In this document: positions 12,092 to 59,970 of the stretch, piece by piece
How positions within the stretch are numbered: the stretch's first letter is position 1
Layout of the letters: each line of letters opens with the position of its first letter
Assembly (NCBI RefSeq): GCF_022846255.1
Contig: NZ_AP025682.1
Length of the DNA stretch: 64,000 nt
Direction: 5' to 3' (one strand)
Source: Escherichia coli
Lineage (GTDB): Bacteria > Pseudomonadota > Gammaproteobacteria > Enterobacterales > Enterobacteriaceae
Notes under the pieces: generated by a model
What the model was told of the DNA's origin: nothing
The model's database searches: none
The model's input: the letters and a program-made list of their open reading frames with translations, nothing else
Position numbers and translations under genes: made by a program

Positions 12092-13066
12092 ATGGCGAAT
12101 ATGTTTGCCCTGATTCTGGTGATTGCCACACTGGTGACGGGCATTTTATGGTGCGTGGATAAATTCTTTTTCGCACCTAAACGGCGGGAACGTCAGGCAG
12201 CGGCGCAGGCGGCTGCCGGTGACTCACTGGATAAAGCAACACTGAAAAAGGTTGCGCCGAAGCCTGGCTGGCTGGAAACCGGTGCTTCTGTTTTTCCGGT
12301 GCTGGCTATCGTATTGATTGTGCGTTCGTTTATTTATGAACCGTTCCAGATCCCGTCAGGTTCGATGATGCCGACTCTGTTAATCGGTGATTTTATTCTG
12401 GTAGAGAAGTTTGCTTATGGCATTAAAGATCCTATCTACCAGAAAACGCTGATCGAAACCGGTCATCCGAAACGCGGCGATATCGTGGTCTTTAAATATC
12501 CGGAAGATCCAAAGCTTGATTACATCAAGCGCGCGGTGGGTTTACCGGGCGATAAAGTCACTTATGATCCGGTCTCGAAAGAGCTGACGATTCAACCGGG
12601 ATGCAGTTCCGGCCAGGTATGTGAAAACGCGCTGCCGGTCACCTACTCCAACGTGGAACCGAGCGATTTCGTTCAGACCTTCTCACGCCGTAATGGTGGG
12701 GAAGCGACCAGCGGATTCTTTGAAGTGCCGAAAAACGAAACCAAAGAAAATGGAATTCGTCTTTCCGAGCGTAAAGAGACACTGGGTGATGTGACGCATC
12801 GTATTCTGACAGTGCCGATTGCGCAGGACCAGGTGGGGATGTATTACCAGCAGCCAGGGCAACAACTGGCAACCTGGATTGTTCCGCCGGGACAATACTT
12901 CATGATGGGTGACAACCGCGACAACAGCGCGGACAGCCGTTACTGGGGCTTTGTGCCGGAAGCGAATCTGGTCGGTCGGGCAACGGCTATCTGGATGAGC
13001 TTCGATAAGCAAGAAGGCGAATGGCCGACAGGTGTGCGCTTAAGCCGCATTGGCGGCATCCATTAA
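12092..13066 (+). CDS. lepB: signal peptidase I
   Basis: 324 aa; catalytic SGSMMPTL motif. Confidence 0.97.
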   Translation: MANMFALILVIATLVTGILWCVDKFFFAPKRRERQAAAQAAAGDSLDKATLKKVAPKPGWLETGASVFPVLAIVLIVRSFIYEPFQIPSGSMMPTLLIGDFILVEKFAYGIKDPIYQKTLIETGHPKRGDIVVFKYPEDPKLDYIKRAVGLPGDKVTYDPVSKELTIQPGCSSGQVCENALPVTYSNVEPSDFVQTFSRRNGGEATSGFFEVPKNETKENGIRLSERKETLGDVTHRILTVPIAQDQVGMYYQQPGQQLATWIVPPGQYFMMGDNRDNSADSRYWGFVPEANLVGRATAIWMSFDKQEGEWPTGVRLSRIGGIH

Positions 13067-13081
13067 TAGCCCATCTTCGTT

Positions 13082-13110
13082 CACGTTGTCGCCGTTATGG
13101 CGACAACGTG
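13082..13110 (+). terminator. hairpin after lepB (probable terminator)
   Basis: 12-bp perfect stem CACGTTGTCGCC / GGCGACAACGTG with loop GTTAT; the downstream T-run is weak. Confidence 0.45.
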
Positions 13111-13211
13111 AATTATTTATGAGATAAATCTCCCGTGGCTAACGACATCCCCCGTCGTTGTGTATAGAATATTCCCCCGAAGTTTAAGGTTGGCACCTCC
13201 AGGTTGCCACG

Positions 13212-13305
13212 GCACACGAAACAGCGTTGGTCCCCATATACCGGTAAACTGAAACTGCAGCGAAGCAGTTAGCAGAGCCATGTATATCAGGTCTGTTTCG
13301 TGTGC
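13212..13305 (+). promoter_or_regulatory. rnc leader long-range stem (candidate RNase III autoregulatory site)
   Basis: 13-bp inverted repeat GCACACGAAACAG (13212..13224) / CTGTTTCGTGTGC (13293..13305) in the 5' UTR of rnc. Confidence 0.45.
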
Positions 13306-13308
13306 TGA

Positions 13309-14921
<1,613 letters not shown>

Positions 14922-17478: not shown

Positions 17479-17748
<270 letters not shown>

Positions 17749-17954
17749 TTACCGTTAAATCATTTTAAAAATCAGTAAGTTGTATCGAGTTTGTATGCTT
17801 TACTGTCATTAACTTACTGTATGTTGATCCAGTGTATTTAACCTTGATAAACTCAGTCCAGTAACACAAAGCCGCAACACATTGCATTTTGTCCCGTAGA
17901 AAAGACTTGTATGTGTGTGCTTGTTTTCTGCGCCTACGCAGATAAGGATTGAGA

Positions 17955-19352
17955 ATGCCGCGCACTGTAACACATAATCCGGATAGCCCCAATAATGACG
18001 ATGTTTTAGCCGCATCTGAAAAATGGGACGCCTGTAAACCCCCCTATACCAGCGCACACATGAAAATCTGTGTTGCTGCCGCCAAAATCATCCTCGCTGC
18101 TTCCGGCGTGGCTCGCCGTTCCAAATACGAAAAAGAGAACTATCTCCGTATCGATTTCAGCAAAGCCGGTAAGGTTACATTTTACGCCGAGTTTCCAAAA
18201 AAGATGGGCCTCAAAGGTAAAAAGCTCGGCGAGTGGCCGGAGCTCGCTATCCAGCTGGCGCGCGAAAAAGCGCTAGGTATGGCTGACGGTGGCCTGCGGG
18301 CAGAGTCCGTACATGCAGCGCTGGAAATGTACCGGGATGACCTCAAAGCCAAAGTCGCCCGGCAGAAGCTGAGCCCGGACAGTTTCACAACCTACGGGGT
18401 GCGTATCGACCGGATTAAAGCAACGTTCGGCGAGCGCGAGGTGTTCAGCGACGTAACATACAATCGGCTGGTGGAAGTGCTGGACGAGTGGATCGCTACT
18501 CGCTCGAACAATAACGCCCTGGAGTTGTTTGCCGAGCTCCGTCGGTTCTGGAAGTTCTGCGCACCTACTCTTTGCAACGGCCGCAATGTTGCCGCCAGTC
18601 TGCCAGATGATTATGTTTCCTCCCGCGTACAGAAACCTACCCCCACACGGCTTTTTACCGATATTGAATCAATCGCCCGACTCTGGCTCAATGTTGCTGC
18701 CTGCACCTCTGTACACCAGAAGAATGCTGTTCGCTTCATGATCATCACTGGTGTTCGTCCGATTAATGTCCATAACCTGCGCTGGGACTACGTTCACGAG
18801 GAGGCTGGTGAAATTGTTTATCCGGAAGGGGTTATCGGCATGCGAGGGGCTATGAAAACACAAAAGGCTTTCCGCCTGCCGATAACCCCTGAGATCCGGC
18901 GGATTATCGACGAGCAGAAAGCCTGGCGTGATTCAGTTCCTGAGTGCAACAGGGATTATGTATTTTTGCAGCCACGTGATCCAATGCAGCCATTTTCAAA
19001 ACGATCACTGGATAAGCTGGTGAAAACATACAGCCCGGACGGGGCTGTAAAAGGAATAAAACATGATGGGACTGTTAAAGGGAAAGACGGTGCATTTAAT
19101 ACGATGTGCCGTAAATTCCTTAAGAGCAATGTTATTGCCTTGATGAAGGAAAGAGGCTATTCCCGCTCAGACCGAAGGGAAATCAGCCTCCTTTGCCTTC
19201 ACCACTCCAGCAAGTCAGATGACCCGATGGCAGAACATTACGACTTTTCTGATGAGATTTTACAGGAAGAGATTGCGTTGAAGCGCGAAGCTTTCGAGGC
19301 TCACGAGCGGAGCATACTTGCGCAGGTGGCATTGCTACGGCGGCGAGGTTAA
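17955..19352 (+). CDS. phage integrase (divergent tyrosine-recombinase-like)
   Basis: 465 aa from the internal ATG with AAGGA Shine-Dalgarno (ORF-track start 17949 is TTG); position beside attL; candidate catalytic R/H/Y residues in the C-terminal half. Confidence 0.65.
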   Translation: MPRTVTHNPDSPNNDDVLAASEKWDACKPPYTSAHMKICVAAAKIILAASGVARRSKYEKENYLRIDFSKAGKVTFYAEFPKKMGLKGKKLGEWPELAIQLAREKALGMADGGLRAESVHAALEMYRDDLKAKVARQKLSPDSFTTYGVRIDRIKATFGEREVFSDVTYNRLVEVLDEWIATRSNNNALELFAELRRFWKFCAPTLCNGRNVAASLPDDYVSSRVQKPTPTRLFTDIESIARLWLNVAACTSVHQKNAVRFMIITGVRPINVHNLRWDYVHEEAGEIVYPEGVIGMRGAMKTQKAFRLPITPEIRRIIDEQKAWRDSVPECNRDYVFLQPRDPMQPFSKRSLDKLVKTYSPDGAVKGIKHDGTVKGKDGAFNTMCRKFLKSNVIALMKERGYSRSDRREISLLCLHHSSKSDDPMAEHYDFSDEILQEEIALKREAFEAHERSILAQVALLRRRG

Positions 19353-19549
19353 TACTGGCTGCGACATTTTTGAATAAAAGCGTCGATATTTCGGCGCTCA
19401 TAACGAACTACTTTTGCACTGAAACGAATTGGTGCCAGGATAGCCCGATGACGATGCTTAATATTCCACTCACATAGCGTTTTCTGTGTAATACCTAACT
19501 TTTGGCATACTTCATCCGGGGTGAGTAAATCGTCGGGTTTCTCGCTCAT
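19349..19549 (-). CDS. AlpA-like excisionase / DNA-binding protein
   Basis: 66 aa (LLTPDEVCQKLGITQKTLCEWNIKH...); convergent with and 4 bp overlapping the integrase 3' end. Confidence 0.6.
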   Translation of the reverse strand: MSEKPDDLLTPDEVCQKLGITQKTLCEWNIKHRHRAILAPIRFSAKVVRYERRNIDAFIQKCRSQY

Positions 19550-20940
19550 GCTATACCTCTCTTTTTCATGGCATCGAGCAGGATGTCCTGCACTGTTCGT
19601 TTTGAGTTGCGCCGCTCCATCACCATTTCATCCATAGTGTCGGCAGCAATAATGTGGTGAATAAATACCGGACGATTGTGTCCGGCCTGTATCTGCCTGG
19701 TGGGGCCGATACGTTCAATAATTTGCTGATATTGCTCCAGGTCCCACCAGTGTGAGAAAAATACCAGTATATTTCCGCCGTCCTGCATGTTCAGGCCGTG
19801 GCCCGCGCTGGCTGGGTGTGCAAAGAGAACAGGAATCTTTCCGGAATTCCAGTCGCGCAGTGTCTGTGGATCCTGGTCGAGGTGACGACCGCGAGGGAAT
19901 GCTTTAAGCAAGCGTTCAAGATCGTGTTTCCAGTGATAAGCAACCAGCACAGGTGCGCCAGCTGCTTCGGTCAGTATGCTGTCCAGCGCCTGTAGTTTGG
20001 TGTCATGCAGTTCTGACCAACTTCCGGTGTCATCTGTGTATACTGCGCCGCTGGCGATTTGCAGACACTTCAGTGTCTTTGCCGCGGCGTTCGGTGCTTC
20101 GATGCCTTCGCCATTCAGCTCGAGGAACATTTCCTTTTCCATTTCACGATACTGCTGACGGGCCTTCGGTGGCATATCCACGCGGATTACGTTATGGATG
20201 GGGTCTTTGATATCGAACCAGTCGGCCGCATCCAGCGAGAGGGTTACATCGGCTAACGCTCGCTGTATTTCACCCTGTGAGTGAGCAAAAGGCTCCAGTT
20301 TGGTCCAGCTCTGCCCCGGAAACTGTATCGAGTTGAACCAGCGTGAGGTAAACGCGCCGTAAGTGCGCCCGAGACGTTGCCCCTGGTCCACAAACCACGA
20401 TTGTCCCCACAAATCTACCAGGCCGTTCGGTGCTGGCGTACCGGTGAGATTTATCCAGCGCCGGACATACTTATGCGCCACTTTGCCCAGCGCCGCCGCG
20501 CGCTTACCACCACCGCGCAGCCGGAAGGATTTTAGCCGGGTGCTTTCATCTGGAATGACAGTACCGAACGGCCATCGTTCTCCCAATTCTTCAATCAGCC
20601 AGACAAGGTTATCGTAGTTGATGGTGAACACGCTTGCGTTGCTGTTCGTCAGCGCCATAGAGCGCGCTTTGGCATTACCAATAATTGGCTGCACCTCGAT
20701 ATTGCGCAAATGTCCCCACTTCAGTGCTTCATCCGGCCATGTGCTGGCAGCCACGCGCAGCGGCGCGAGGACCAGTGCGGGGCATGTTTCTGCCCCTGCC
20801 ATAAAGAGATCTTCCAGCGCAGTGAGCGTTGCCACGGTTTTACCCATTCCCATCCCCGCCCAGATGTTGCCGCGCAGGGTTTCGGTTTCGTGGTTGATAA
20901 TGAGATCTTGGTAGGGGCGAGGTATATATTTTGGGGGCAT
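19546..20940 (-). CDS. SNF2-family helicase-like protein
   Basis: 464 aa; GMGMGKT Walker A, DEAD-like VIPDESTRL, helicase C-terminal region. Confidence 0.7.
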   Translation of the reverse strand: MPPKYIPRPYQDLIINHETETLRGNIWAGMGMGKTVATLTALEDLFMAGAETCPALVLAPLRVAASTWPDEALKWGHLRNIEVQPIIGNAKARSMALTNSNASVFTINYDNLVWLIEELGERWPFGTVIPDESTRLKSFRLRGGGKRAAALGKVAHKYVRRWINLTGTPAPNGLVDLWGQSWFVDQGQRLGRTYGAFTSRWFNSIQFPGQSWTKLEPFAHSQGEIQRALADVTLSLDAADWFDIKDPIHNVIRVDMPPKARQQYREMEKEMFLELNGEGIEAPNAAAKTLKCLQIASGAVYTDDTGSWSELHDTKLQALDSILTEAAGAPVLVAYHWKHDLERLLKAFPRGRHLDQDPQTLRDWNSGKIPVLFAHPASAGHGLNMQDGGNILVFFSHWWDLEQYQQIIERIGPTRQIQAGHNRPVFIHHIIAADTMDEMVMERRNSKRTVQDILLDAMKKRGIA

Positions 20941-20955
20941 ATAATATGGCTCCTA

Positions 20956-20989
20956 AACAACAAAAGGCCAATTTAGGCCTTTTGTTGTT
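20956..20989 (-). terminator. 14-bp perfect hairpin between the 305-aa cargo gene and the helicase gene
   Basis: AACAACAAAAGGCC / GGCCTTTTGTTGTT with loop AATTTA; 3' arm is U-rich on the minus-strand transcript. Confidence 0.45.
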
Positions 20990-21002
20990 TTAAAAATGTT
21001 AT

Positions 21003-21920
21003 TTATAATAGTGCTGTTACTATTGCATCTTTAAAAATATTTTCTTCTTCATTTATTAAAGGTGATGACAGATGAATAATTACTTCTTTTCCTGTCAATA
21101 CTATTTGCTCGACTTGAAATCCTGCGTTGTGTAGTCTTTGGCGTAACTTTTCTAGTGCTGATTTTGATATACTAAATCCTTCACTCCTTATAGTATAACT
21201 GGCAACTCCATTTTTAATAATATCTACAGAGTTGTCAATTTCCTGCTGCGAGTAATTTTTCGGTGAGTCGAAAAATCTGGATTTTGTCGTTGCTGTTGCC
21301 CTAAGAGATATCAATAATGATTTGATATCTTTAATCTCAGATGCCAGATACTCAGTTTCTGATACTTCTTTCTGGTCTAGTTGTGCAACTTTGAAAGTGC
21401 CAAAATGTTTGAGGAATGTTGTGTATTCAGGATCAGTTACTGACTTTAAATATGTTTCTTTTATCTTGCTCGCAAGTCTTTCTTTGAATAAATTGATTGA
21501 TTGGTATCTTAAATCCGAAGGGTACTCTAAATGTTCAATTGATGAAATGTCAAAGCTATAAGGAGTGCGCTCGTCCTTAATAATTACGGTCGGTTTGTCA
21601 AATGCGAGACGCATTCCTAATTCAAACATTACATTAGCGTTTCGAGCACTTATATCGCAAACAACTATGGGGTTTTCATAAAGATTTTGAACAATTCGTT
21701 TTTGTATTACTGCAACATCATCATCTGAACTTACCAAATTTGCCTTGAATCCGGCATCATTTGATGCTTCACAAATAATGTCATGAACATTTCTCCAATG
21801 TCCAGTGGGATAACCTTCTATGTCCGCAATTGGCATAATAATGCCGCATATATGAGGTGGCATATTTTTGTTGTCTTTTACATCATCTTGGTTTATTTCT
21901 TTCGTTTGTTGCTTAGCCAT
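21003..21920 (-). CDS. hypothetical cargo protein with N-terminal TIR-like/NDT-like domain
   Basis: 305 aa; motifs ICGIIMPI, PIVVCDIS and RNANVMFELGMRLAFDKPTVII resemble the beta-strand and NV-x-FELG core of the 253-aa protein; AT-rich by eye. Confidence 0.35.
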   Translation of the reverse strand: MAKQQTKEINQDDVKDNKNMPPHICGIIMPIADIEGYPTGHWRNVHDIICEASNDAGFKANLVSSDDDVAVIQKRIVQNLYENPIVVCDISARNANVMFELGMRLAFDKPTVIIKDERTPYSFDISSIEHLEYPSDLRYQSINLFKERLASKIKETYLKSVTDPEYTTFLKHFGTFKVAQLDQKEVSETEYLASEIKDIKSLLISLRATATTKSRFFDSPKNYSQQEIDNSVDIIKNGVASYTIRSEGFSISKSALEKLRQRLHNAGFQVEQIVLTGKEVIIHLSSPLINEEENIFKDAIVTALL

Positions 21921-21935
21921 AGCTTACACAGACTC

Positions 21936-22220
21936 CTATTGTAATTTTTTGCCTAATATACATGAAAGCTCCTTACTATCCAGTACTACCACGGTAAAGC
22001 CCAGTTTTCGCAGACGTTCATGCTCGCGCAACTGATCAGGTCGTGGTGGTTTGCCTGGTGCTTTGCATTCGACAAAGACGATGCGACCGCCGGGTAGCAG
22101 AACAATGCGATCTGGTACCGAGCGGAGACCGGGAGATACGAACTTAAAGGCAACCCCGCCAGCCTTTTTTACTTCAGCGACGAGGTGCTTTTCGATTAGG
22201 TTTTCACGTTCATAGGCCAT
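21936..22220 (-). CDS. VRR-NUC domain nuclease
   Basis: 94 aa (GFKFVSPGLRSVPDRIVLLPGGRIVFVECKAPGKPPRPDQ). Confidence 0.65.
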   Translation of the reverse strand: MAYERENLIEKHLVAEVKKAGGVAFKFVSPGLRSVPDRIVLLPGGRIVFVECKAPGKPPRPDQLREHERLRKLGFTVVVLDSKELSCILGKKLQ

Positions 22221-22414
22221 TAGCTTTCGCCTTCCTGCTTTTTGCGTTTCTTCATGCAGATAGCGCAGTTCTCAGGATGGTCATGCCATTCGTCAATCCT
22301 GATACCTGTGAACATCCATTTTCCGCATAGTGATATGGCTTCCCCCGAATTAAAGAAATGTGCTTTTTTCGACAGGGCGGGGAACCCCCAACCTTTATTA
22401 TCGATATTAGACAT
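22220..22414 (-). CDS. small cysteine-containing phage protein
   Basis: 64 aa with C..C and CxxC spacing (SLCGKW...ENCAICM). Confidence 0.4.
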   Translation of the reverse strand: MSNIDNKGWGFPALSKKAHFFNSGEAISLCGKWMFTGIRIDEWHDHPENCAICMKKRKKQEGES

Positions 22415-22604
22415 CGTCCACCTCCTTACGCTTTTCGCGCATGTTCTGCATCAGACAAAAATCAAACCGACGTTCGCTTTGGCCCAGACCTGCATCGCCC
22501 GGTCGTACCCGCTGGACTGTTCAAGGCGCAAAGCCTCCCGCGCAGTCCGGTAATAAAGCGGACTGTCCCGGTATTTAAATGACATAGGGTTTTTATTCCC
22601 AAAT

Positions 22605-22625
22605 AAAAAACCCCGCAATGCAGGG
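22605..22625 (-). terminator. hairpin with U6 after the 253-aa cargo gene
   Basis: Minus-strand CCCTGC / GCGGGG stem with one G-U pair and a 3-nt loop, followed by U6. Confidence 0.4.
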
Positions 22626-22649
22626 TTGTAATCAACAATAAGGGGGTAA

Positions 22650-23411
22650 TTACGAGGAAGCGTTAGCTATTTGAGCTTGTGTAAATTCGAAACCAGAATT
22701 TTGTAACCGTTGCACTAGACGAGGAACTGTTTCACGTACATGGTCGTTGAAATTCAGATACAAAATCCCGTTAGCATCAGAAGGCTGTTCTAGGTGCTGT
22801 TTCTGAAGGATTGCTACATTGCTGCGCCCTAAGGACGAAAGAAGCATACCCATCTCGAGTACAACGTTCTGTCTTGCGCGGGGTTGGATTTCTGCTTCAC
22901 CGGCGCGCTTTGAGTATCCCATATCATCAGGTGTCAAAAGAACAATCCCGAAACGGGTAGCAGTTTGTCCTTGCCCAATTTCACGTTCAAGCTCTTCAAT
23001 AATGGTGAGTCCAGTCCCTCCCGTATTCTGCAAAATGAAATGGTCTGGTAATCCAAGTTTATGAAGGATTAGCTCAAGTTGTTCCTTTGCAGTATGGTCA
23101 TGGCCGTGAACAATGAATATCTTTTTGGGAAGCTCAGATGGCTGTTCTACGGCTAGTGGTGTTGCCGTGGGGGGCGTTCCTAAATGGGACATTATTGCAG
23201 TTTCAACATTGGGACGTTCTTGAGGGTTACCTTGAAACTGAATGGTCCGGGTGGTGTAAAGGTTAACAATTACGCCATTCGTTAAACGATAGCAGTCATA
23301 AGTCTCACGCTGTTCGTGGGAAAAATTGGTGAACCCACACTCCCTCAAAAAGTCAGGAAAAGATTCTCTCGGGTATGGATAGGTGATCGGCATTTCAGTT
23401 AGTTCCTGCAT
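22650..23411 (-). CDS. hypothetical cargo protein with C-terminal TIR-like domain
   Basis: 253 aa; KKIFIVHGHDHTAKEQLELILHKLGL and RARQNVVLEMGMLLSSLGRSNVAILQK resemble the COG4271-type TIR-like nucleotide-binding fold (from memory of motifs); unrecognised ~100-aa N-terminal domain. Confidence 0.45.
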   Translation of the reverse strand: MQELTEMPITYPYPRESFPDFLRECGFTNFSHEQRETYDCYRLTNGVIVNLYTTRTIQFQGNPQERPNVETAIMSHLGTPPTATPLAVEQPSELPKKIFIVHGHDHTAKEQLELILHKLGLPDHFILQNTGGTGLTIIEELEREIGQGQTATRFGIVLLTPDDMGYSKRAGEAEIQPRARQNVVLEMGMLLSSLGRSNVAILQKQHLEQPSDANGILYLNFNDHVRETVPRLVQRLQNSGFEFTQAQIANASS

Positions 23412-23475
23412 AAGTATTGTTCCTTTAATTTACTCGAATTCAGCATGTCGCCATAGCTCGATAAGGTGAGTTATA

Positions 23476-25551
23476 TCAATCTTTTTTGTAGTGGTACGCC
23501 TCAAAGCCGCCAGCGTTCAGCGGAATATCGGGTGCCCATTCGGGGTTAGTGGAGAGAAGCGCGGAAAGCGCTTTATCGTTGAAATCTTCTGTGTCTGGTG
23601 CTTCGGTGATCACCTCGTCGTGTACCGTTAGCACAATGCTGTAACCGGCACCCTCGATCAGCGGCATGTTTCTGGCCAGAACGTCGCGGGCGGCCGCCTG
23701 GGTGACGTTCTCCACCAGCTTTCCGCCGTAGGTTTTGAGTCGTTGCCATTTACGCGAATAAGAGTTAACACCCATGTAGGTGATATTCCCTTGTTCGATA
23801 ACCGGAGACGGGTAGCATACAGCGCGTCCGGATGGTAGCTGTATGCGCAGCCACGCGCCATCACGTCGGATTTTAAGATAGCCGCAATACAATGTTTTTT
23901 GCGGTGTGGCGATTGCTGTGCGGACAGTGCGCTCCAGCTCGTACCAGAAATCGCAGGTCGCCGGGTGCGCCCTGCGCCACAGGCGCTTGAGCGAGTCACA
24001 TGCGATGAATACACGCTCGGACAGGCCAAAGGTCGACTTACGCTTAACCGATTCGTCGTACCAGCTTTTTGCCTCGCGGATAACATCGCGGGGAATGTTT
24101 GGCAGTGCGGCGTTCGCCAGCTCGTCGAGATCGAGACCGTAAACCAGAGCAAAAGTGATGAAAGCCGATACACCACCTCCATAACCCAGACCGAGTTCCA
24201 TGACTTTACCGATCTGACGCATGTGTTTATCAACATCATCTGGTGCAATATCGAAAGCTTTTGCATACGCCAGTTTATATAAGTCCGGACCCGTTCCAGC
24301 GTCATACTCTCTGAATGCATTCAGTTTCCATTCTTCTCCCGCCAGCCATGCCAGCATACGGCCTTCAATGTTTGACAAGTCACTTACCACTAGTTTTTTG
24401 CCTGTTGGCGCGATAATGCAGCCACGTAACGCTGAACTGGTTAGTTCCATGATATTGTCAAACAGCAGGTCTGCACATCCGGCTTTCAGTGCTTCGATGC
24501 CTTCGTCTATTTGTTCCTGTTTTAGTGAAGGGCGGGGAAGGTTCTGGGGCTGGAATAGCCGTCCGGCCCAACGACCGGTACGTGACGCCCCGCAGAACTG
24601 TAGCGTACCGCGTAAGCGCCCGTCGTGGCTTACGCCTTTCATCAGTGCCTTGTATTTACTGGTGCTGGTAGTACTGGCTTGCAGGCGGATAGCCAGCAGT
24701 TCTTTCACGGCAGATGATAAATCGGGGTCGGCCATACGACGTTCCAGGGTACTGCGTTGCATGTCTGGTAGCTCCACACCGTAGGATTCAACGATGTGCT
24801 TAATCAACGCGTCCCGTTGTGTGGCTGCCTGCACTTCGCCATCAGTCATTTCCTGTGTACGCTTTGCTAGGCGCTTTTGCTCCTGGTCTACCGCTTCGAT
24901 CGCAGCGCGCGCGAGTTGCATGTCCATGCAGACGCCCCGGTCGTTGATCTGCTGATCACGATGCCAGAGCGCCAGCTCTGTCCCCTGATAATTCCACTTC
25001 GGCAGACGTTTATAGACTTCGCGCATTGCCTCGATATCCAGTCCGGCGTAAGCAACAAAGCGCCGCCATTCTTCCGGGTGGGTTTTGCTGGTGGCACGGC
25101 GCAGTTTGCTGTTTTTCGGGCGGGGCTTACAGAACAGCTGGATCAGCGCTTTACCTTCTTTGTCCTTCGCTTTGTCTTGCGGGACGCCGAGTATTTCGCA
25201 GAGTTCCCCCAGAGACCCCGGGAGACCGTGCGCCAGCGCCTGCACCATTGTGTCTCGCCAGCGTTTGGCGCTACCTGCAACAACGCATTGGGGAGTGTGC
25301 AGCAATGCATGGCGCAACATGGTGCGATCGAAATGGCTGTTGTGTGCATATATTAGTACGCTCTCATCGCTGAGAGCTGTCAGTAGTCGTGTCGGCAAGT
25401 TATAGTCTGTGGTTAAATCGTGTACGCTGACGGGGTCTTCGTCGATTGCCCATGCGAATAACATGATTTCGACTCCTTCTGCATAGACATGGGTGCCGTT
25501 TTTTATTGGGATTTCGCTGAAAGTTTCGAGGTCTAACCAAAGTTTTTGCAT
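23476..25551 (-). CDS. family A DNA polymerase (PolA-like, exonuclease + polymerase)
   Basis: 691 aa from the first ATG ([13 protein letters not shown]... exonuclease-like); the ORF-track start at 25593 is TTG and lies inside the upstream hairpin. Confidence 0.8.
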
Positions 25552-25580
25552 CAAGTAAGGACCCGTTGGATTTAATAAAT

Positions 25581-25607
25581 AAAAAGCCGCCAAAATGGCG
25601 GCTTTTT
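25581..25607 (-). terminator. rho-independent terminator directly after the SIR2-like gene
   Basis: GCCGCC / GGCGGC stem with a 5-nt loop, flanked by A5 and T5 (bidirectional shape). Confidence 0.6.
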
Positions 25608-25627
25608 ATAACCGAAGTTAAGAATGC

Positions 25628-27130
25628 TTAATATGATAAATAATCATACAAGCATAAAAGTCGCCTGTATTGGGTATCAATTTTATGCCCTGGTTTTGTT
25701 AAATAATCTCGTAGTTGTTTCAATGAAATAGTATCGTTTAGTACGCAATACATAATCGTGTTAGCAACTTTATACTCTTTCGTTTCTTTTAGTATTTCAT
25801 CAATAGACACAGCCTCACTCTTACATGTTTTAATTCGAGAAAGGTTACCAATGATTTTATCTAGCTGCCGTTTTCTGTATGTCTCGGTATTTTCTAGTTC
25901 AGGGCAGATAGAACTAAAAGCGTATATTGGAAAGTGTTCGCTATTAGCTATGGTTTGCTTATTCAGTAATGCGATAAGCTGAGAGTTTGCTTCGTCAACT
26001 ATTTTAAAATAGTTCTGTATCATTTCAGATTTTGTTTGATAAACATATTGTACGGTTCTTTCTGAACCAACAGCAATGACCATTTCATCATTGCGAAGTT
26101 CATCTAAATTTTCTGTAATTTTAACCTTTATCTCACCACCACTTTTGATGGTACTCCAAACTTTTTGAACCTTTCTTATGTCCATTGCGGATACTGGCAA
26201 AACTAGTCCCGAGATGGCATCATATACAGCTTTGTAATTGTTTGTTTTTATTTTGTTTATTCTTATGATAGACATGCCTTCTATATCTATGTCATGCTCC
26301 GTAATTTCAGTTGACATGCTGTCTTTTTCGTATTCAACCAAAAGAAAATTATCTTTTATCCTTTTTGCAAGTTCGGTATTTAAGTCAACGTATGAGAATA
26401 TGGTTTTTAATAAGTACTTAATGTTTTTATCGCTAATACTATACCCTATAAATATGATAGGGTTGTGTATGAATATTGAGAGTAATTGAGCGCGAATTAA
26501 CTCATATTTATTGTCGAAGTTTGCGTAGTCTTCACCTGTGATAATTATGTTGTTAGGATCACTAACACAGCCATGTATTTTGTAAACTGAACCGTATGGG
26601 TTACTTAAAAGAATGTTATTACCAATCAGTGGGTTAAATTCGAAGATGTTCTCTACGAGTTGGTCGTAGTTTGTTGTAATGATGGAGCCTATGTTTTTTC
26701 TTGTTTTTATTAAGCTGTTTATTTCCTCCATCATTGACTCTTTTATCTTTAGGTCTTTAAGTATTGAAGTTAAATAAATTTTGAATCGACTTAGTTTTTT
26801 TCCTTTTTTCATGTGCTCATAGAAAACATCATTGATGTCTTTGAACTTACCGTTACGATCTTCTGCCAGCTTTTTATTAAAAATATCTTCAAGTTTTGTA
26901 GCTAAGATATCATATCGATAGTCGTCACCTTCTAGGCTTTCAGCTTTCAAATCGTAGTAAAACTCAGCATTACCGGTTAGTTCCATTGCGACACTCAAAA
27001 GAAGACCATCCCAGCTAAATGAGTTTTCTAGATACCGTAGGCTAAATCCTGTTCCAATGAATAGAACAGGGTGGTTTTTATAGTGACTTACAAACTCTTG
27101 GATTTCCATACCGATTCTCAAAGTTGACAC
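25628..27130 (-). CDS. SIR2-like domain protein (SIR2_2 / ThsA-type N-terminus, unknown C-terminal domain)
   Basis: 500 aa; LFIGTGFS, ITTNYDQLVE, KIHGCVSDPNNIIITGEDY and PIIFIGYSISDKN align by eye with the ThsA SIR2 motifs; GTG start with AGAGG Shine-Dalgarno (alternative ATG at 27109); AT-rich. Confidence 0.7.
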   Translation of the reverse strand: MSTLRIGMEIQEFVSHYKNHPVLFIGTGFSLRYLENSFSWDGLLLSVAMELTGNAEFYYDLKAESLEGDDYRYDILATKLEDIFNKKLAEDRNGKFKDINDVFYEHMKKGKKLSRFKIYLTSILKDLKIKESMMEEINSLIKTRKNIGSIITTNYDQLVENIFEFNPLIGNNILLSNPYGSVYKIHGCVSDPNNIIITGEDYANFDNKYELIRAQLLSIFIHNPIIFIGYSISDKNIKYLLKTIFSYVDLNTELAKRIKDNFLLVEYEKDSMSTEITEHDIDIEGMSIIRINKIKTNNYKAVYDAISGLVLPVSAMDIRKVQKVWSTIKSGGEIKVKITENLDELRNDEMVIAVGSERTVQYVYQTKSEMIQNYFKIVDEANSQLIALLNKQTIANSEHFPIYAFSSICPELENTETYRKRQLDKIIGNLSRIKTCKSEAVSIDEILKETKEYKVANTIMYCVLNDTISLKQLRDYLTKPGHKIDTQYRRLLCLYDYLSY

Positions 27131-27220
27131 GTAATACCTCTATAAAAACAAATAGCCGTAAAAATTCCAATAGCTTTTTGGATCTCGCCCGGTGTGTAAC
27201 CGGGCGTCTATGAAGAAGGG

Positions 27221-27769
27221 TTAAATCAGTGCTTCAGCATCAGCACCTTCGCTGATATCGTCGAAATCGTCAGCGCTTGCCACTCCGCCGCCAGCGAATG
27301 CATCGCCGTCTCGCAGGAACTGGACTCCGCCGAGTGAGGCATTAATGCGTTTACCGAAATTATTGTCCTGTGCCCAGATATCGATAACGGCGTTTACATA
27401 GCACCCTGCATAGGGACGTCCATCAGCCTGAATTAGTGGCGAACGATCGCGATCAAGAACAGCTGGGCGCGCTTTGTTAGCAGCGTTCAGGAAGAAATTG
27501 CCGGGAAAACCTTCATACTCTGCTTTTTCATCACCATCATGCAGGCACAGATTGAGTTTTTTCTCCAGCTGGTTATAAATGGACTCCCACTTCTCCCCCC
27601 ATTTTTCCTTCGCTACCTGCTTCATAGCTTTACGGATTTCTTCCAGTTGTGGGTGTTTGGGAGACATTAAAAATACTGCGGAGAAACGCGGATCGCCTTC
27701 GCCGTTTACAGTTTTAGCTTCAAACAGAGACGGGAAGGCCAGACGAACATTGTTCAACTTCAGTTTCAT
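27221..27769 (-). CDS. DUF2815-like phage protein (putative ssDNA-binding)
   Basis: 182 aa; MKLKLNNVRLAFPSLFEAK N-terminus typical of this family. Confidence 0.55.
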   Translation of the reverse strand: MKLKLNNVRLAFPSLFEAKTVNGEGDPRFSAVFLMSPKHPQLEEIRKAMKQVAKEKWGEKWESIYNQLEKKLNLCLHDGDEKAEYEGFPGNFFLNAANKARPAVLDRDRSPLIQADGRPYAGCYVNAVIDIWAQDNNFGKRINASLGGVQFLRDGDAFAGGGVASADDFDDISEGADAEALI

Positions 27770-27784: not shown

Positions 27785-29086
27785 TCAGATGAGGTCTGCG
27801 GTTAGCGTATCGTCGGATACGTCGTCGAAATCATTTACAGGGTTGATATTGAGTGCGGGGCGTGGGTCTGACTCGGGAACGACGGTGGGTTTACCATCAG
27901 CTCGTGTTATCAGTGCCTCGACTTTTGACCAACGGCGCGGACTGGCCTTTTTGATAAGTTTTTCGGCTTTTGTGGGACTAATAAGTTTAAAGTCGAATAC
28001 TTCTTCAGTTTTGTACCTGAACTGGTCCTTCAGAAGTGCGCGAGCTGCCTCTTCATCACTCCAGGCCCGGTTACCTTGTTTTCCTGTTACCAGTTTAAAC
28101 CCCGGTACCGAATGTCCGGCATTGAGTTCATTGTGAACCCGGTCCCGTACTTCCTTTAGCCAGGATTCAATAAAGTCGGCCTGGCTATAGATCTCCGCAA
28201 GCTGCTCAATGGTTAACAGAGGTACACGTGCGCTGGCATTGGTGATTATTTCGCTGACAGGCTTTGTCAGATCTTCAAAGTCGCTGGCCGCTGTTTGTAA
28301 ATGCTGCATTTTCTGGGCAGTGCAAATAGCTTTTGCTTTACAGAAGCGGCACTGTTTTTCTCCAGGTATGAATTTTTCCAGCGGTAGTGTCTCAATGCCT
28401 TCGCATTCAGCAATATTGAGAACAAGCATCGCACTGGTTGCGGCCTCCTGTGCCCGTTCACCGAAAGACTGAAGTTCCTGCACGGTTAACGACCATTCTG
28501 AAACGTGGTTGAGCCTTGGCTGGTGAATAAATAATCTTACAGTCTCAAAGTCATACAGCATGCTGAATTGTTCGAGCGCACCCAGAGCATACAGTTGTAG
28601 TTGCTCATTTTGTTCTGCATCAATGCGGACGCCTTTGCCATATTTCAGGTCGTGGATTTGTAATTCGTTACCAGCGATGATTATGCCGTCGGCAGTTCCG
28701 AAAGATTCTTCCACACCCGTTATATGTGAGAAATCAACACGTTGTTCAACCAATAGTTCATTATTCTTTGCAAGAGTCCAGACCGTATCAACATACCGGC
28801 CGACGGCTTCGACCATTTCATCATCCACCTGTGGGCCAGATGTATCATCAGGATTTTCGCGAAGGGGGTATGAGCCGAGAAACATAGAAACATTGCATCC
28901 GGCGTAGTGTTCCGGGTGGCTTTGCCTGTTTCGTAGAACTTTTTCAGCAAGCGCGTGCGCTGCAGTGCCCTCGATTGCAAAAGTTGTTTCTTTATCCGGT
29001 TGTGTGGCCTCCAGCGCCAGACTTCCTGGGCAGCGCATCCATCGATGCGCTGATGATGGAGAAAGTTGTGCATGAACGTCTGGCAT
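27785..29086 (-). CDS. DUF2800-like PD-(D/E)XK nuclease with C-terminal cysteine cluster
   Basis: 433 aa; [15 protein letters not shown]-terminus and C-terminal [10 protein letters not shown] cluster. Confidence 0.55.
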
Positions 29087-30770: not shown

Positions 30771-31463
30771 TCAGAGCAGAACGGAGTACCAAAATACTTG
30801 GCCTATAATCCTGATTTTATTAGCCTCTTGATTAAAATACTCTTCGTCTGCGTATTCATCCCTATTGAAAGAGCGTATCCGGAGTCCGCTTGGGAGACGG
30901 TACAATAGTTTGACACGAAGTAATCCGTCTTGGTCTATGGCGTACATTTGACCATCTTTTACACCTGTTTTTGATGTATCTATGCCGACGACAGCGCCAT
31001 CCGGTAATACCGGTTCCATGCTGTTGCCGTGGATGCTGACACAAGCCGCACAATTTACGTCAACACCTGCTTTGCGCAACGTTGAACGGGCGAATCTTAA
31101 CTTACATCCCATTCGATCTATATCAACATAAGTACCATTACCGGCAGATAGCTCAATTTCCTGATAGAACGGTATTTCCACTTCATCATCCTCTAATGGC
31201 GTTGATGAGTCCCATACAGAAAACCCTCCCTCAACTTGTGCATTAGAATGTATTTCTTTGGTATCGCTTGTTTTGCCTGAAAGTAGCCACTCTGGAGAAA
31301 CGTTCAATGCTTCGGCCAGATTTATAAGATTTTTCCCGTTAGGTGTGGTGTTTCCGGATTCCCATTGTGAAATCGTGGCTTTAGTTAGACCAATACGTTT
31401 AGCAAGCGCATCCTGCGTTAGGTGGACATTGCGACGAGCCTCGCGAATACGATCATTAATCAT
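30771..31463 (-). CDS. CI-like repressor (HTH plus S24 LexA-like peptidase)
   Basis: 230 aa; N-terminal helix-turn-helix (LTQDALAKRIGLTKATISQWESG) and C-terminal S24 fold; divergent from a cro-like gene. Confidence 0.85.
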   Translation of the reverse strand: MINDRIREARRNVHLTQDALAKRIGLTKATISQWESGNTTPNGKNLINLAEALNVSPEWLLSGKTSDTKEIHSNAQVEGGFSVWDSSTPLEDDEVEIPFYQEIELSAGNGTYVDIDRMGCKLRFARSTLRKAGVDVNCAACVSIHGNSMEPVLPDGAVVGIDTSKTGVKDGQMYAIDQDGLLRVKLLYRLPSGLRIRSFNRDEYADEEYFNQEANKIRIIGQVFWYSVLL

Positions 31464-56609: not shown

Positions 56610-57211
56610 TGGATAAAGCCGTATTAAATAGCGAACTTATTGCCACGAAGGCGGGGAATATTACCGTCTATAACTATGATGGTGAAACACGGGAATATAT
56701 TTCCACTTCAAATGAATATCTTGCCGTTGGTGTCGGTATCCCGGCATATTCCTGTTTAGATGCTCCTGGCACATATAAGGCTGGTTATGCAATCTGCCGT
56801 TCAGTAGATTTAAACTCATGGGAATATATGCCAGACCATCGCGGTGAAATTATCTATAGCACCGAAACAGGAGAAGCAAAAGAAATCACAGCTCCGGGTG
56901 ATTACCCTGAAAATACAACCACTATCGTCCCGTTAACGCCATATGATAAATGGGATGGTGAGAAATGGGTGACAGATTCTGAGGCACAACACGGTGCCGC
57001 AGTAGAAGCGGCAGAAGCACAGCGCCAGTCACTGATTGATGCAGCAATGGCTTCCATCGGTCTGATTCAGCTGAAATTACAGGCCGGACGGAAGCTGATG
57101 CAGGCAGAAACAACCCGGCTTAACGCTGTGCTGGATTACATTGACGCGGTGACGGCAACAAATACCAGCACAGCGCCGGATGTCATCTGGCCTGAACTGC
57201 CGGAGGCGTAG
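56609..57211 (+). CDS. tail fibre assembly protein (U-like)
   Basis: 200 aa; C-terminal TSTAPDVIWPELPEA-type motif. Confidence 0.65.
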   Translation: MDKAVLNSELIATKAGNITVYNYDGETREYISTSNEYLAVGVGIPAYSCLDAPGTYKAGYAICRSVDLNSWEYMPDHRGEIIYSTETGEAKEITAPGDYPENTTTIVPLTPYDKWDGEKWVTDSEAQHGAAVEAAEAQRQSLIDAAMASIGLIQLKLQAGRKLMQAETTRLNAVLDYIDAVTATNTSTAPDVIWPELPEA

Positions 57212-57626
57212 GCCATTCAATATCTGGCGCACAGGAAGTATCGACCAGTTCCAGTGCGTCCAGATAATCCAGCCATAAATTATATTGCTCCAGCTCGTTA
57301 CCTTTCAGACGACCAATAGCAGCTTTGCCAGGCCACTGATGGGTATTGATGTAAGTATTGGCTTCTGAAACCAAAGATATTTTTTTCATTTCAGCCATCA
57401 ACACCTCATCCTCTTTTGAAGGCGGTGGGGAATTAATCCATATTGGCCGTCCTGAACTGTCAGCGCCAATTTCTTTCCCTTCTGGATGCAGCCCAAGAAA
57501 TTGCTCATATGTTTCTCGGGTAATTTCAATAACATCATCTGGAAGCGTTCCCGCATCCTCATATTCTGGAAACAATTCTTGTAGATAAAAACTTTTACTT
57601 CCGGGTGAAAAGAATACTGAGTTCAT
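57183..57626 (-). CDS. alternative tail fibre assembly protein (U'-like)
   Basis: 147 aa on the opposite strand; C-terminus TSCAPDIEWPTPPAVQAR paralogous to the plus-strand gene. Confidence 0.6.
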   Translation of the reverse strand: MNSVFFSPGSKSFYLQELFPEYEDAGTLPDDVIEITRETYEQFLGLHPEGKEIGADSSGRPIWINSPPPSKEDEVLMAEMKKISLVSEANTYINTHQWPGKAAIGRLKGNELEQYNLWLDYLDALELVDTSCAPDIEWPTPPAVQAR

Positions 57627-57628
57627 TA

Positions 57629-58123
57629 TTACCGTCCAATGATTAACGCTGAGACGCTGGTATCTGAAGGAAAGGCTGCATTCAGTGGTTTGTCGACTTT
57701 GAACACAATCGTATTATTCCCCCTGACAGCGGCAAAAGAACAAACCGCAGTCGCGTATGAACCTGTAATATTACTGGATACACCACCATAAGCTGTTGTT
57801 GATACCAGAGGGATAACGCCCAGCACCTTATTAGGAAATACAAAGGGCAATGTGGCTGTGGCAATATAAGACTTATTAGAGCCTGTGATGGCATAAGCAT
57901 TATCAGTCATTCCATTCATCGCCACCGGGCCGCTTATACTTACAGTAACCATCTGAATGATTAGCCCGTCAGGTTGACGAATCACAAAATTTCCATTGCC
58001 ACCAGTAACCGTCCAGAAAGACATATCAGGGATTTGGTTTTCCCCGTTGCCCACATTCCGTTTTGCCGCTTCTCCCAAACCAACGTTTATGAAAATGCAG
58101 AAATAACGAGCAAATGGCATCAT
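57629..58123 (-). CDS. alternative tail fibre variable C-terminal segment (Sv'-like)
   Basis: Minus-strand ORF whose 5' end (..INVGLGEAAK) spans the right crossover site; expressed only after inversion fuses it to the constant fibre N-terminus. Confidence 0.55.
   Translation of the reverse strand: MMPFARYFCIFINVGLGEAAKRNVGNGENQIPDMSFWTVTGGNGNFVIRQPDGLIIQMVTVSISGPVAMNGMTDNAYAITGSNKSYIATATLPFVFPNKVLGVIPLVSTTAYGGVSSNITGSYATAVCSFAAVRGNNTIVFKVDKPLNAAFPSDTSVSALIIGR
58069..58083. repeat. right crossover site of the invertible segment
   Basis: CTTCTCCCAAACCAA, reverse complement of 56128..56142; about 67 bp upstream of the invertase start. Confidence 0.6.
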
Positions 58124-58149
58124 TCCTGCTTTTGTCAGGGAGATCTACC

Positions 58150-58704
58150 ATGCTTATTGGCTATGTACGCGTATCAACAAATGACCAGAATACCGATCTA
58201 CAACGTAATGCGTTGAACTGTGCAGGATGCGAGCTGATTTTTGAAGACAAGATAAGCGGTACAAAGTCCGAAAGGCCGGGACTGAAAAAACTGCTCAGGA
58301 CATTATCGGCAGGTGACACTCTGGTTGTCTGGAAGCTGGATCGGCTGGGGCGTAGTATGCGGCATCTGGTCATTCTGGTTGAGGAGTTGCGCGAACGTGG
58401 CGTTAATTTTCGCAGCCTGACGGATGCTATTGATACCAGCACACCGATGGGGCGTTTTTTCTTTCATGTGATGGGGGCCCTGGCTGAAATGGAACGAGAA
58501 CTGATTGTTGAACGAACAAAAGCTGGACTGGAAGCTGCTCGCGCACAGGGACGAATTGGTGGACGTCGTCCCAAACTTACACCAGAACAATGGGCGCAGG
58601 CCGGGCGACTAATTGCATCAGGAGTTCCTCGCCAGAAGGTGGCGATCATTTATGATGTTGGCGTATCGACTTTGTATAAGAAGTTTCCGGTCGGAGATAA
58701 ATGA
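58150..58704 (+). CDS. serine DNA invertase (Gin/Pin/Hin family)
   Basis: 184 aa from MLIGYVRVSTNDQNTDLQRNAL...; closely resembles Mu Gin as recalled; the ORF-track start at 58114 is an upstream in-frame ATG. Confidence 0.85.
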   Translation: MLIGYVRVSTNDQNTDLQRNALNCAGCELIFEDKISGTKSERPGLKKLLRTLSAGDTLVVWKLDRLGRSMRHLVILVEELRERGVNFRSLTDAIDTSTPMGRFFFHVMGALAEMERELIVERTKAGLEAARAQGRIGGRRPKLTPEQWAQAGRLIASGVPRQKVAIIYDVGVSTLYKKFPVGDK

Positions 58705-59432: not shown

Positions 59433-59490
59433 TATAAGTACTCGCTAATATTGAACGATATATATATCAAATTATTATAAAACTCGTCAG

Positions 59491-59769
59491 CTACTGGAGC
59501 AGGCTACCTGAACTTCGATCTATTCCTGCATCCATATAGTTGATGGTCTTCTGGAGCTCTTCGATTAGGGCAACAGCTTTTGCTCGAGAAATGCATATTA
59601 GTTGATCCGGAAATTCTTGTAAGGGCCAGTTTGGTATACAGGCCATGTTATCAGTGAAGGATGCAGACAAGTAAACTTCATTGGTAACCAGAGAATAGCT
59701 TACCTCAAAATTGGTGAGTTCCGGCAAACTGCTAACGTTTGACTCTTTTCTGCGCATAATATTATCCAT
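59491..59769 (-). CDS. small hypothetical protein (cargo, upstream partner of the membrane protein)
   Basis: 92 aa from the internal ATG (MDNIMRRKES...); the ORF track extends to 59919 through the G10/C10 tract; AT-rich. Confidence 0.4.
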   Translation of the reverse strand: MDNIMRRKESNVSSLPELTNFEVSYSLVTNEVYLSASFTDNMACIPNWPLQEFPDQLICISRAKAVALIEELQKTINYMDAGIDRSSGSLLQ

Positions 59770-59851
59770 GACTGTAATTATGTACAGGTGATGGTCTTCA
59801 ATTTCGAAGAGGGAGTCAAGGGGGAGTCTCAAATGAACCGTTATAGAAAAA

Positions 59852-59861
59852 GGGGGGGGGG
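59852..59861. repeat. G10 homopolymeric tract
   Basis: Ten consecutive G upstream of, or within an N-terminal extension of, the 59491..59769 gene. Confidence 0.5.
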
Positions 59862-59970
59862 ATCTTTGTGTTGCTGAACTTATGCAAAATTTTTTTGCAC
59901 CATAAATCCAACAACACATTCAATAACACATTGCTGTATCACTATGAAAATAAATGTGTTTTTATTTGAT

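Follow-up and report, generated by a model that had tools for sequence, protein, structure and literature searches.

Three exchangeable cargo genes in the replication region of an Escherichia coli prophage: most likely separate single-gene defences, not one split Thoeris-like system

Type I Thoeris pairs two neighbouring genes of one operon: a ThsB-type TIR protein generates the signal, gcADPR, and this activates the SIR2 NADase of the effector. The effector ThsA carries its SIR2 domain fused to a SLOG (STALD) ligand-binding domain (bioRxiv 10.64898/2025.12.03.692087). The 64,000-nt stretch of E. coli DNA analysed here (the window) contains a temperate phage of about 42 kb, integrated beside yfhL, in which a SIR2-like gene (gene A) and two TIR-like genes (genes B and C) are interleaved with conserved SNF2, VRR-NUC, PolA and DUF2815 genes. 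This raises the question if the three genes are parts of one Thoeris-like module acting in trans from separate polypeptides, as put forward in the initial annotation, or if each of them works on its own. The interleaving with core replication genes was confirmed by the open reading frames (slots A, B and C are the intervals holding the genes of the same letter):

19546-20940, minus strand: SNF2 helicase, core backbone, left border of slot C (RefSeq annotation)
21003-21920, minus strand: gene C, unclassified 305-aa protein
21936-22220, minus strand: VRR-NUC nuclease, core backbone, between slots B and C
22650-23411, minus strand: gene B, stand-alone CAP12/Pycsar-type TIR protein of the PDC-S35 family, 253 aa
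23476-25551, minus strand: family A DNA polymerase (PolA), core backbone, between slots A and B
25628-27130, minus strand: gene A, stand-alone SIR2 protein of the PDC-S25 family, 500 aa (Pfam, PADLOC)
27221-27769, minus strand: DUF2815/Enc34-type ssDNA-binding protein, core backbone, right border of slot A
27785-29086: DUF2800 gene

The region is best explained as the leftward early/replication operon of the temperate phage. Literature searches returned no functional studies of PDC-S25 or PDC-S35, of PF10137 prophage genes or of the DUF2800/DUF2815 module.

Gene A, whose true start is probably the ATG at 27109 (M8), encodes a SIR2 NADase-type domain (residues ~1-300) and an all-helical C-terminal domain (~365-500). 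Its SIR2-like nature, already recognized in the initial annotation, is supported by Pfam SIR2_2 (1.2e-20) and by a full-length match to the PADLOC model PDC-S25 (4.1e-158, residues 4-500); together with the SIR2 catalytic Asn and His, this match places the protein in the PDC-S25 family. The two catalytic residues, N154 and H186, are invariant among 91 homologues and align with the ThsA motifs TTNYD and YKMHG. TIR-like and SIR2 domains are the two enzyme superfamilies of type I Thoeris, and ThsA is the nearest relative in sequence of the gene A SIR2 domain; both points favour a scheme in which infection prompts B and/or C to produce an NAD-derived signal that activates the SIR2 protein A in trans. 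Against this scheme, the PADLOC ThsA models match gene A at residues 121-305 only, i.e. within the SIR2 part, and neither the AF2 model nor Foldseek revealed a SLOG or Macro ligand-binding domain on the protein, the C-terminus being helical. The AF2 model (pLDDT 76.6) is all-helical over 365-500 and of low confidence near H186 and over 313-363 (the latter stretch with no more than two short strands). Its best Foldseek matches are DSR2 (top), ThsA, KomC and SIR2/HerA. DSR1 and DSR2 are single-protein SIR2 NADases with a C-terminal sensor. Gene A follows the same plan in a single gene, SIR2 domain first and helical domain last, but is half the size (500 versus ~1000 aa), matches the PADLOC Dsr1 model in the SIR2 part alone (3.7e-5) and has a C-terminal domain for which no relatives were detected, PDB sequence and fold matches covering the SIR2 domain only.

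Gene B consists of an N-terminal domain of ~90 aa, possibly TBP-like and with only weak RnlA_toxin/DUF3378 matches, and a TIR domain (97-222). Its assignment as TIR-like holds as well, with hits to Pfam CAP12-PCTIR_TIR (PF10137, 4.5e-31) and PDC-S35 (1.3e-108, residues 10-253); the full-length match, the PF10137 TIR and the catalytic Glu identify it as a member of the PDC-S35 family. This residue, E186, shows no variation and falls on the NVVFEFG motif when aligned with Cap12 (7un8). In CBASS Cap12 (TIR-STING) and Pycsar PycTIR, the TIR domain is fused to a cyclic-nucleotide sensor, with a cyclase gene adjacent. Gene B shares with them the PF10137 TIR and the NVVxExG catalytic-Glu motif, but no STING, SAVED or cNMP-binding domain is present here. 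The neighbouring genes and those at the right end of the prophage include neither a cyclase nor another partner, and no cyclase is among the proteins scanned. The NCBIfam Cap12 model, whose cutoff is 450 bits, gives 34.8 and 30.5 bits, over the TIR region only. Gene B is of the PF10137 CAP12/Pycsar effector type and not ThsB-type, a further difference from type I Thoeris. The candidates PDC-S25 and PDC-S35, each a single gene, were described from BREX/DISARM/RM loci in which they are embedded (bioRxiv 10.1101/2024.01.29.577857, Payne et al. 2024), whereas A and B, which match these models full-length, are prophage cargo.

In the third protein, that of gene C, a TIR/deoxyribosyltransferase-like alpha/beta domain (23-162) is followed by a long helix (188-211) and by an alpha+beta C-terminal domain (231-304) that varies among homologues; E100 is invariant. 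The earlier description as TIR-like agrees with the alpha/beta domain, for which the closest structural match is the Cap12 TIR, in a fold that is the promiscuous flavodoxin-like one. Sequence matches behind this fold assignment are sub-threshold, and a PDB sequence search with gene C gave no match. Any kinship of the protein with the PF10137 effector type would be distant. The family occurs in several bacterial phyla, is mislabelled 'RNA helicase' and is absent from PADLOC. Gene C stands by itself in a lambdoid nin region, within an integrase island of Pseudomonas and among the cassettes of a Vibrio superintegron. A protein of this kind might instead be a DrHyd-class nucleoside/nucleotide N-glycosidase with a role in the nucleotide metabolism or DNA modification of the phage rather than in immunity. 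We consider this unlikely: the nearest structure is the Cap12 TIR, the NVxFELGM/HLExPSD motifs are common to the gene C and gene B families, the C-terminal domain is variable among homologues, and the solitary integron and island cassettes lack nucleotide-metabolism partners. Tentatively, and as one possibility among others, gene C may found a widespread, so far unrecognised family of single-gene TIR/DrHyd-like defences with a swappable C-terminal sensor.

The initial annotation had also considered that the three proteins might be phage-side sponges or mimics of host immunity. We disfavour sponges or dead mimics because the catalytic residues are invariant in all three families (N154/H186 in A, E186 in B, E100 in C).

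Low GC content had been ascribed to all three genes. This applies strongly to A (33.2%) and C (34.4%), with a backbone of 49-55%, but not to B, which is mildly AT-rich (45.3%). That each gene ends in its own hairpin was corroborated by reading the three structures directly and folding them:

20955-20990, minus strand: hairpin with a 15-bp stem following gene C, directly before the SNF2 start (RNAfold, -23.5 kcal/mol)
22603-22627, minus strand: intrinsic terminator after gene B with U-tract (-14.5 kcal/mol; read directly and found by scan)
25572-25609, minus strand: intrinsic-terminator-like hairpin and U-tract between gene A and PolA (RNAfold, -20.3 kcal/mol, 14-bp stem)

The hairpin after gene A, as read directly, is AAAAAGCCGCC-AUU-GGCGGCUUUUU, followed by the U-tract. 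A consensus terminator scan flagged the gene B hairpin only, and its total count was not above that of shuffles; the same holds for the total of a promoter scan, in which one weak sigma-70-like site was seen, upstream of gene C (21982-21955), so the case for promoters of the genes' own is unconvincing. Deviant base composition and an own hairpin, as known for morons, are thus found here, B's GC deviation being mild. In type I Thoeris the two genes adjoin in one operon, whereas A, B and C are separated by PolA, VRR-NUC and terminators. All three share the strand of the early operon and have short spacers, and by this position they could be simply early lytic genes.

Prophage defence genes are known from hotspots, e.g. 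BstA downstream of repressors or the hotspots of P2/P4. In the present phage family, comparison of 86 related loci, in which SNF2 is 92-100% identical wherever a full-length match is present, delineated three cargo-exchange hotspots within 6 kb, namely DUF2815|PolA (79-2571 bp), PolA|VRR-NUC (218-1825 bp) and VRR-NUC|SNF2 (11-2055 bp). The slots range from empty (11-95 bp) to ~2.5 kb among 80 related prophages, and the cargo nature assumed for the three genes was upheld by this presence or absence between conserved flanks. The open reading frames found in the slots with a length of 45 aa or more fall into ~100 sequence clusters. Part of them are spurious antisense frames, and among the real genes many are encoded on the opposite strand. 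Alternative cargo in relatives includes BstA (1e-115, in slot C), PDC-S42, Dcm and N6 methyltransferases, Ant, HNH and membrane proteins. Variable cargo between conserved phage genes, deviant GC, own terminators and the presence of BstA in slot C of relatives are all shared with prophage moron hotspots; having three hotspots within 6 kb, inside a replication gene cluster, is a difference.

How the three genes came together can be read from the mismatch profile of the prophage in 500-bp bins against two related loci, L001 and L004:

25000-27187, no strand: recombinant patch with the SIR2 cassette (slot A), ECONIH2-type within an otherwise ECSC054-type prophage

Compared with L001, each bin over 18000-24999 has 0-2 mismatches and that of 17500-17999 has 6, while 25265-27187 no longer aligns; compared with L004, bins over 25000-27499 show 0-5 mismatches. 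A prophage lineage with B and C gained the A cassette by one recombination. That the triple results from a single cassette swap speaks against the split Thoeris-like reading.

A linked module should be reflected in co-occurrence. The backbone is present in 158 of 5426 complete E. coli genomes, which hold near-identical copies of A (4 genomes), B (36) and C (23); near-identical A, B and C together occur in none of the 5426. From the near-identity DNA search it first appeared that A is never found with B in E. coli. This is wrong at the family level, because megablast missed a 72%-identical B allele carried by three of the four A genomes, an association that would favour the split Thoeris-like reading. 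Co-occurrence was hence scored by tblastn and family HMMs too, not by near-identity DNA alone. An obligate nesting of C within B, suggested by the near-identical copies (all 23 C genomes have B), was likewise discarded: the DNA is 99.9-100% identical for C and 99.2-99.6% for B and was read as one prophage lineage, and C lacks B in the other C-anchored viral loci and accompanies A alone in L112.

The viral contigs, surveyed with family-level HMMs within +/-10 kb of the anchor, gave 237 family-anchored loci, and 223 of these contain one family only (A alone in 74/77, C in 76/80, B in 73/80). AB, BC and AC pairs each occur, as do all single combinations; the ABC triple was found in none of the 237 and is present in this window only. 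On the backbone, A and B co-occur as often as expected (observed 1 versus expected 0.8, 80 loci). The best-conserved neighbour, a backbone or HTH gene, accompanies A in 7/33, C in 6/60 and B in 7/44 lineages, so that by lineage counts none of the families has a conserved neighbour. Outside these loci, Klebsiella carries gene A alone, in the same slot of a decayed prophage that is indexed in 668 assembly-collection blocks, with no TIR gene beside it at any of the places read; in Firmicutes it stands alone adjoining an RT gene, and a Vibrio cholerae island has gene B alone. The three families assort independently, and the TIR and SIR2 genes here are, unlike those of type I Thoeris, not co-inherited. 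In view of this assortment, of the missing SLOG and Macro domains on A, of B and C not being ThsB-like and of the lack of a conserved neighbour, we regard the split module of the initial annotation as highly improbable. Facultative cooperation, e.g. an NAD-derived product of B or C being sensed by the non-SLOG helical domain of A, has an equally small chance of being true; it would amount to a new type of Thoeris-like signalling built from separable cassettes.

The independent swapping of A, B and C into three slots suggests that they are most likely separate defences. We therefore consider it probable that the three genes are stand-alone sensor-NADase morons, each an anti-phage defence of its own and not a piece of one split system; this alternative, already listed in the initial annotation, is the reading best supported by independent assortment, hotspots and mosaic origin. 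What the data themselves show are the domain identities, the intact catalytic residues, the independent assortment, the variability of the hotspots and the mosaic origin; that the proteins act against phages, cleave NAD+, contain sensors and are expressed in the lysogen is our inference. According to our proposal, each hotspot here would hold a different self-contained accessory gene with its own terminator, and each gene would encode a one-protein defence of the abortive-infection type that joins a sensor domain to an NAD+-cleaving domain. In gene A, the SIR2 domain would be coupled to the helical C-terminal sensor, with a logic as in DSR1/DSR2; in gene B, a small N-terminal domain would serve the CAP12-type TIR, and in gene C a variable C-terminal domain the TIR/deoxyribosyltransferase-like domain. 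Superinfection by another phage would trigger the relevant protein, which would then destroy NAD+ (or, in the case of gene C, a related nucleotide), stop the infection and protect the lysogen population. The three proteins would act independently, their juxtaposition being a product of recombination.

A different role would be phage counter-defence, in which A, B and C are early lytic enzymes that break down immune signals of the host or alter its defence proteins, with no part in lysogen protection. The genes are on the same strand as, and in line with, the early replication genes, and viral TIR/DrHyd/SLOG-class domains have been proposed, along with ADPr-processing domains, to counter NAD-derived signals (PMC9503650). 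We nevertheless think this role quite unlikely, even somewhat more so than an N-glycosidase function of gene C. Outside phages the families are common (BREX/RM-embedded single-gene candidates, integron cassettes, genomic islands), genuine prophage defences, BstA for example, occupy these very slots, and no similarity to known anti-defence families was found in PHROGs or NCBIfam. Moreover, gene A is kept in the decayed, non-functional Klebsiella prophage in many assemblies, and this retention suggests a benefit to the host.

With separate defences as the preferred reading, the locus cautions that TIR and SIR2 genes in one locus do not make a Thoeris system. One phage backbone has sampled dozens of accessory genes in three hotspots of its replication operon, and such cargo can conveniently serve as a natural library in which to look for single-gene defences. 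The gene C family is flagged as a defence candidate outside PADLOC, and for the candidates PDC-S25 and PDC-S35 the related prophages offer a natural allelic series. IS1-disrupted copies, together with otherwise similar same-family prophages lacking one gene, are ready-made negative controls.

Genes A (SIR2 protein), B (TIR protein) and C (305-aa protein) are part of a run of minus-strand genes, delineated by ORF calling at 19.5-31.5 kb of the window. They are separated by PolA and VRR-NUC, so that the interleaving with core genes described in the initial annotation is confirmed:

30771-31463, minus strand: LexA/cI-like repressor, first in the run, followed by a 300-aa protein and then DUF2800
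27785-29086, minus strand: DUF2800
27221-27769, minus strand: DUF2815
25628-27130, minus strand: gene A
23476-25551, minus strand: PolA
22650-23411, minus strand: gene B, with a 64-aa ORF between it and VRR-NUC
21936-22220, minus strand: VRR-NUC
21003-21920, minus strand: gene C
19546-20940, minus strand: SNF2, followed by an excisionase-like gene
17949-19352, plus strand: integrase, abutting yfhL

The acpS-shoB-yfhL site of E. coli has an identical layout in RefSeq relatives, and three deposited phages (vB_EcoM-689R2, -611R5 and -606R2) have 73% of the region in common at 99.3% identity. The right end of the prophage appears to lie at ~59.9 kb, ahead of pgpC and a gene for a MurR/RpiR-family regulator. 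The mechanical PolA ORF starts with TTG at 25593, within the terminator hairpin of gene A. In RefSeq relatives PolA starts at an ATG slightly downstream, which in the window we equate with the one at 25551 (MQKLWLDLE...); this start agrees better with the terminator. Between the terminator of B and the 64-aa ORF (22415-22618, minus strand) lies a truncated or frameshifted copy of a gene annotated as 'ANR family transcriptional regulator'; related prophages have the gene intact (73 aa), and in ECSC054 RefSeq lists it as a pseudogene.

Each of the three genes is indeed followed by its own hairpin (-20.3, -14.5 and -23.5 kcal/mol for A, B and C), with classical U-tracts after A and B. The low GC content ascribed to all three holds for A (33.2%) and C (34.4%), whereas B, at 45.3%, deviates only mildly from the backbone genes (49-55%).

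The three positions between the conserved backbone genes are hotspots of cargo exchange. Among 80 viral contigs with a PolA 84-99% identical, in each of which we located the backbone genes, the interval varied from 79 to 2571 bp for DUF2815|PolA, from 218 to 1825 bp for PolA|VRR-NUC and from 11 to 2055 bp for VRR-NUC|SNF2. ORFs of >=45 aa in these slots form about 100 sequence clusters, some of which are spurious antisense ORFs; many real slot genes are on the opposite strand. Other occupants include BstA (PADLOC, 1e-115) and the PADLOC candidate defence family PDC-S42 and, according to RefSeq annotation and our reading of the sequences, Dcm and N6 methyltransferases, PAPS-reductase-like proteins, Ant/BRO, Rha, HNH endonucleases, DUF6338 and other membrane proteins. 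IS1 has inserted into the SIR2 gene of one E. coli genome and into gene C of another, and one viral contig carries a broken A (L006:9405-10102, E. coli 23CRST009; L002:5365-6062, JNEC-KY203; L007:9106-9921). Such repeated inactivation might be due to toxicity or a fitness cost of slot cargo.

The window is near-identical at ~17.5-25.0 kb to an ECSC054-type prophage carrying B and C (each 500 bp of 18000-24999 has 0-2 mismatches). This alignment is lost at 25265-27187, which matches an ECONIH2-type prophage carrying A (0-5 mismatches per 500 bp). From this switch in the mismatch profile we infer that one recombination swapped a 210-aa opposite-strand gene for the SIR2 cassette, its breakpoints falling within the 5' portion of PolA and close to the end of DUF2815.

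A, B and C assort independently. Among 5426 complete E. coli genomes, 158 have the backbone; near-identical copies of A, B and C occur in 4, 36 and 23, respectively, and together in none. A 72%-identical B allele is present in three of the four A-bearing genomes, the remaining one having methyltransferases in B's slot. At family level (family HMMs, viral contigs, +/-10 kb), A stood alone at 74 of 77 loci, C at 76 of 80 and B at 73 of 80; the pairs AB, BC and AC (the last at locus L112) all occur, but no ABC triple was found. In the PolA-anchored set, A and B co-occurred once (0.8 expected). The association of C with B is limited to DNA 99.9-100% (C) and 99.2-99.6% (B) identical, which we read as a single prophage lineage. 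Even the most widely shared neighbour recurs in only 7 of 33 lineages for A, 6 of 60 for C and 7 of 44 for B, and the recurring ones are backbone or HTH genes. An unrelated viral contig carries distant C-like (L286:460-1428, HMM score 127) and B-like (L286:4023-4790, score 276) genes 2.6 kb apart; apart from the E. coli prophage lineage, this was the sole case of B paired with C.

Thoeris pairs a TIR signal generator with an adjoining effector that can bind a ligand through a dedicated domain; in type I this domain is SLOG (bioRxiv 10.64898/2025.12.03.692087). The proposed split Thoeris-like module is not supported, because A lacks SLOG and the TIR-like proteins are (for C by weak evidence) of the effector type. 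The SIR2-like and TIR-like domains as such are well supported for A and B. Gene A carries Pfam SIR2_2 (1.2e-20) and matches the candidate defence family PDC-S25 over its full length (4e-158), but PADLOC ThsA models cover solely its SIR2 part, to which matches in fold and sequence to DSR2, ThsA, KomC, SIR2/HerA and FAM118B are also confined. In the predicted structure the C-terminal 135 residues are confidently all-helical, the model of residues 313-363 is poor and shows just two short strands, and a Rossmann-like SLOG domain is absent.

Gene B has a CAP12/Pycsar-type TIR domain (PF10137, 4.5e-31), matches PDC-S35 (1.3e-108) and is placed by its sequence in the clade of effector-type TIRs that CBASS and Pycsar employ. 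For gene C the TIR-like assignment is tentative: all sequence matches are sub-threshold (PADLOC TIR effector, 1e-6; Nuc_deoxyrib_tr and CAP12 TIR, E~0.2), and a profile-profile comparison weakly aligns its NVMFELGM...HLEYPSD with NVVLEMGM...HLEQPSD of B (E 4e-4, probability 36%), as weak evidence for the same clade. Weak Nuc_deoxyrib_tr matches are given by 46 of 110 family members. As a less likely alternative, gene C alone could have a role in nucleotide metabolism. Unlike CBASS/Pycsar effectors, B and C lack STING, SAVED or cNMP domains; with NCBIfam Cap12 they scored 31-35 bits, where the cutoff is 450, and no cyclase gene was found among the neighbouring and right-end prophage genes.

A, B and C are probably enzymes rather than the sponges or mimics also considered initially, since the presumed catalytic residues are invariant: N154 and H186 of A (91 homologues), aligned to the ThsA motifs TTNYD and YKMHG; E186 of B, aligned to the Glu of the Cap12 motif NVVFEFG; and E100 of C, within the motif equivalent to that of B. 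By analogy, the three most likely act singly, each as an abortive-infection module that joins a sensor to an NADase and protects the lysogen. A would combine a SIR2 NADase with a sensor, following DSR1/DSR2 logic, and B and C would resemble TIR effectors that contain their own sensor. Both PDC-S25 and PDC-S35 belong to a set of 145 candidates, predicted by guilt-by-embedding (bioRxiv 10.1101/2024.01.29.577857); our literature search found no functional study of the A, B or C families.

The genes could instead encode counter-defence enzymes expressed early, along the lines of PMC9503650, but the wide distribution of the families outside phages and the retention of A in a dead prophage make us disfavour this reading. 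In Klebsiella (L087-L090, protein P0021), a 71%-identical A homologue, with 668 indexed blocks in the assembly collection, occupies the DUF2815|PolA slot in a prophage that has decayed (DUF2800, DUF2815 and VapE are truncated); no TIR gene lies nearby. This suggests that the SIR2 gene is retained because it benefits the host. Homologues also occur alone: of A in Firmicutes, adjoining a reverse-transcriptase gene; of B in a Vibrio cholerae island; and of C in a lambdoid nin region, a Pseudomonas integrase island and a Vibrio superintegron cassette. The arrangement is real, but as independent cargo genes, one in each of three exchange hotspots, and not as a split signalling system. Known kinds (prophage defence morons and PDC candidates) gain members and context from it, and the gene C family is added as an unclassified candidate.

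In Vibrio parahaemolyticus, the C homologue is a single-gene cassette with a BstA_C-domain cassette a few cassettes off (L329:8001-8822 and 12681-13553), in what looks like a chromosomal superintegron with repeated ~30-aa ORFs between cassettes. Klebsiella lambdoid prophages whose nin region holds a C homologue also code for small proteins bearing the hairpin domain of Acb2/Tad1, an anti-CBASS/anti-Thoeris sponge family (L098:13894-14130, L100:13156-13440), thus bearing defence-like and anti-defence genes on one phage. In UniProt, most proteins of the gene C family (AFDB50; Proteobacteria, Bacteroidota, Bacillota) are labelled 'RNA helicase', which finds no support in sequence or model and looks like a propagated misannotation.

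At the right end, ORFs of 215 and 142 aa (58785-59919, minus strand), without a match in NCBIfam or PADLOC, lie just inside the junction with the MurR/RpiR-family regulator gene and may mark a further cargo position. At 57183-58704, a serine recombinase/invertase (58114-58704, plus strand) adjoins two short ORFs on the minus strand (57183-57626 and 57629-58123), a layout suggestive of a Mu/P1/P2-type invertible tail-fibre segment.
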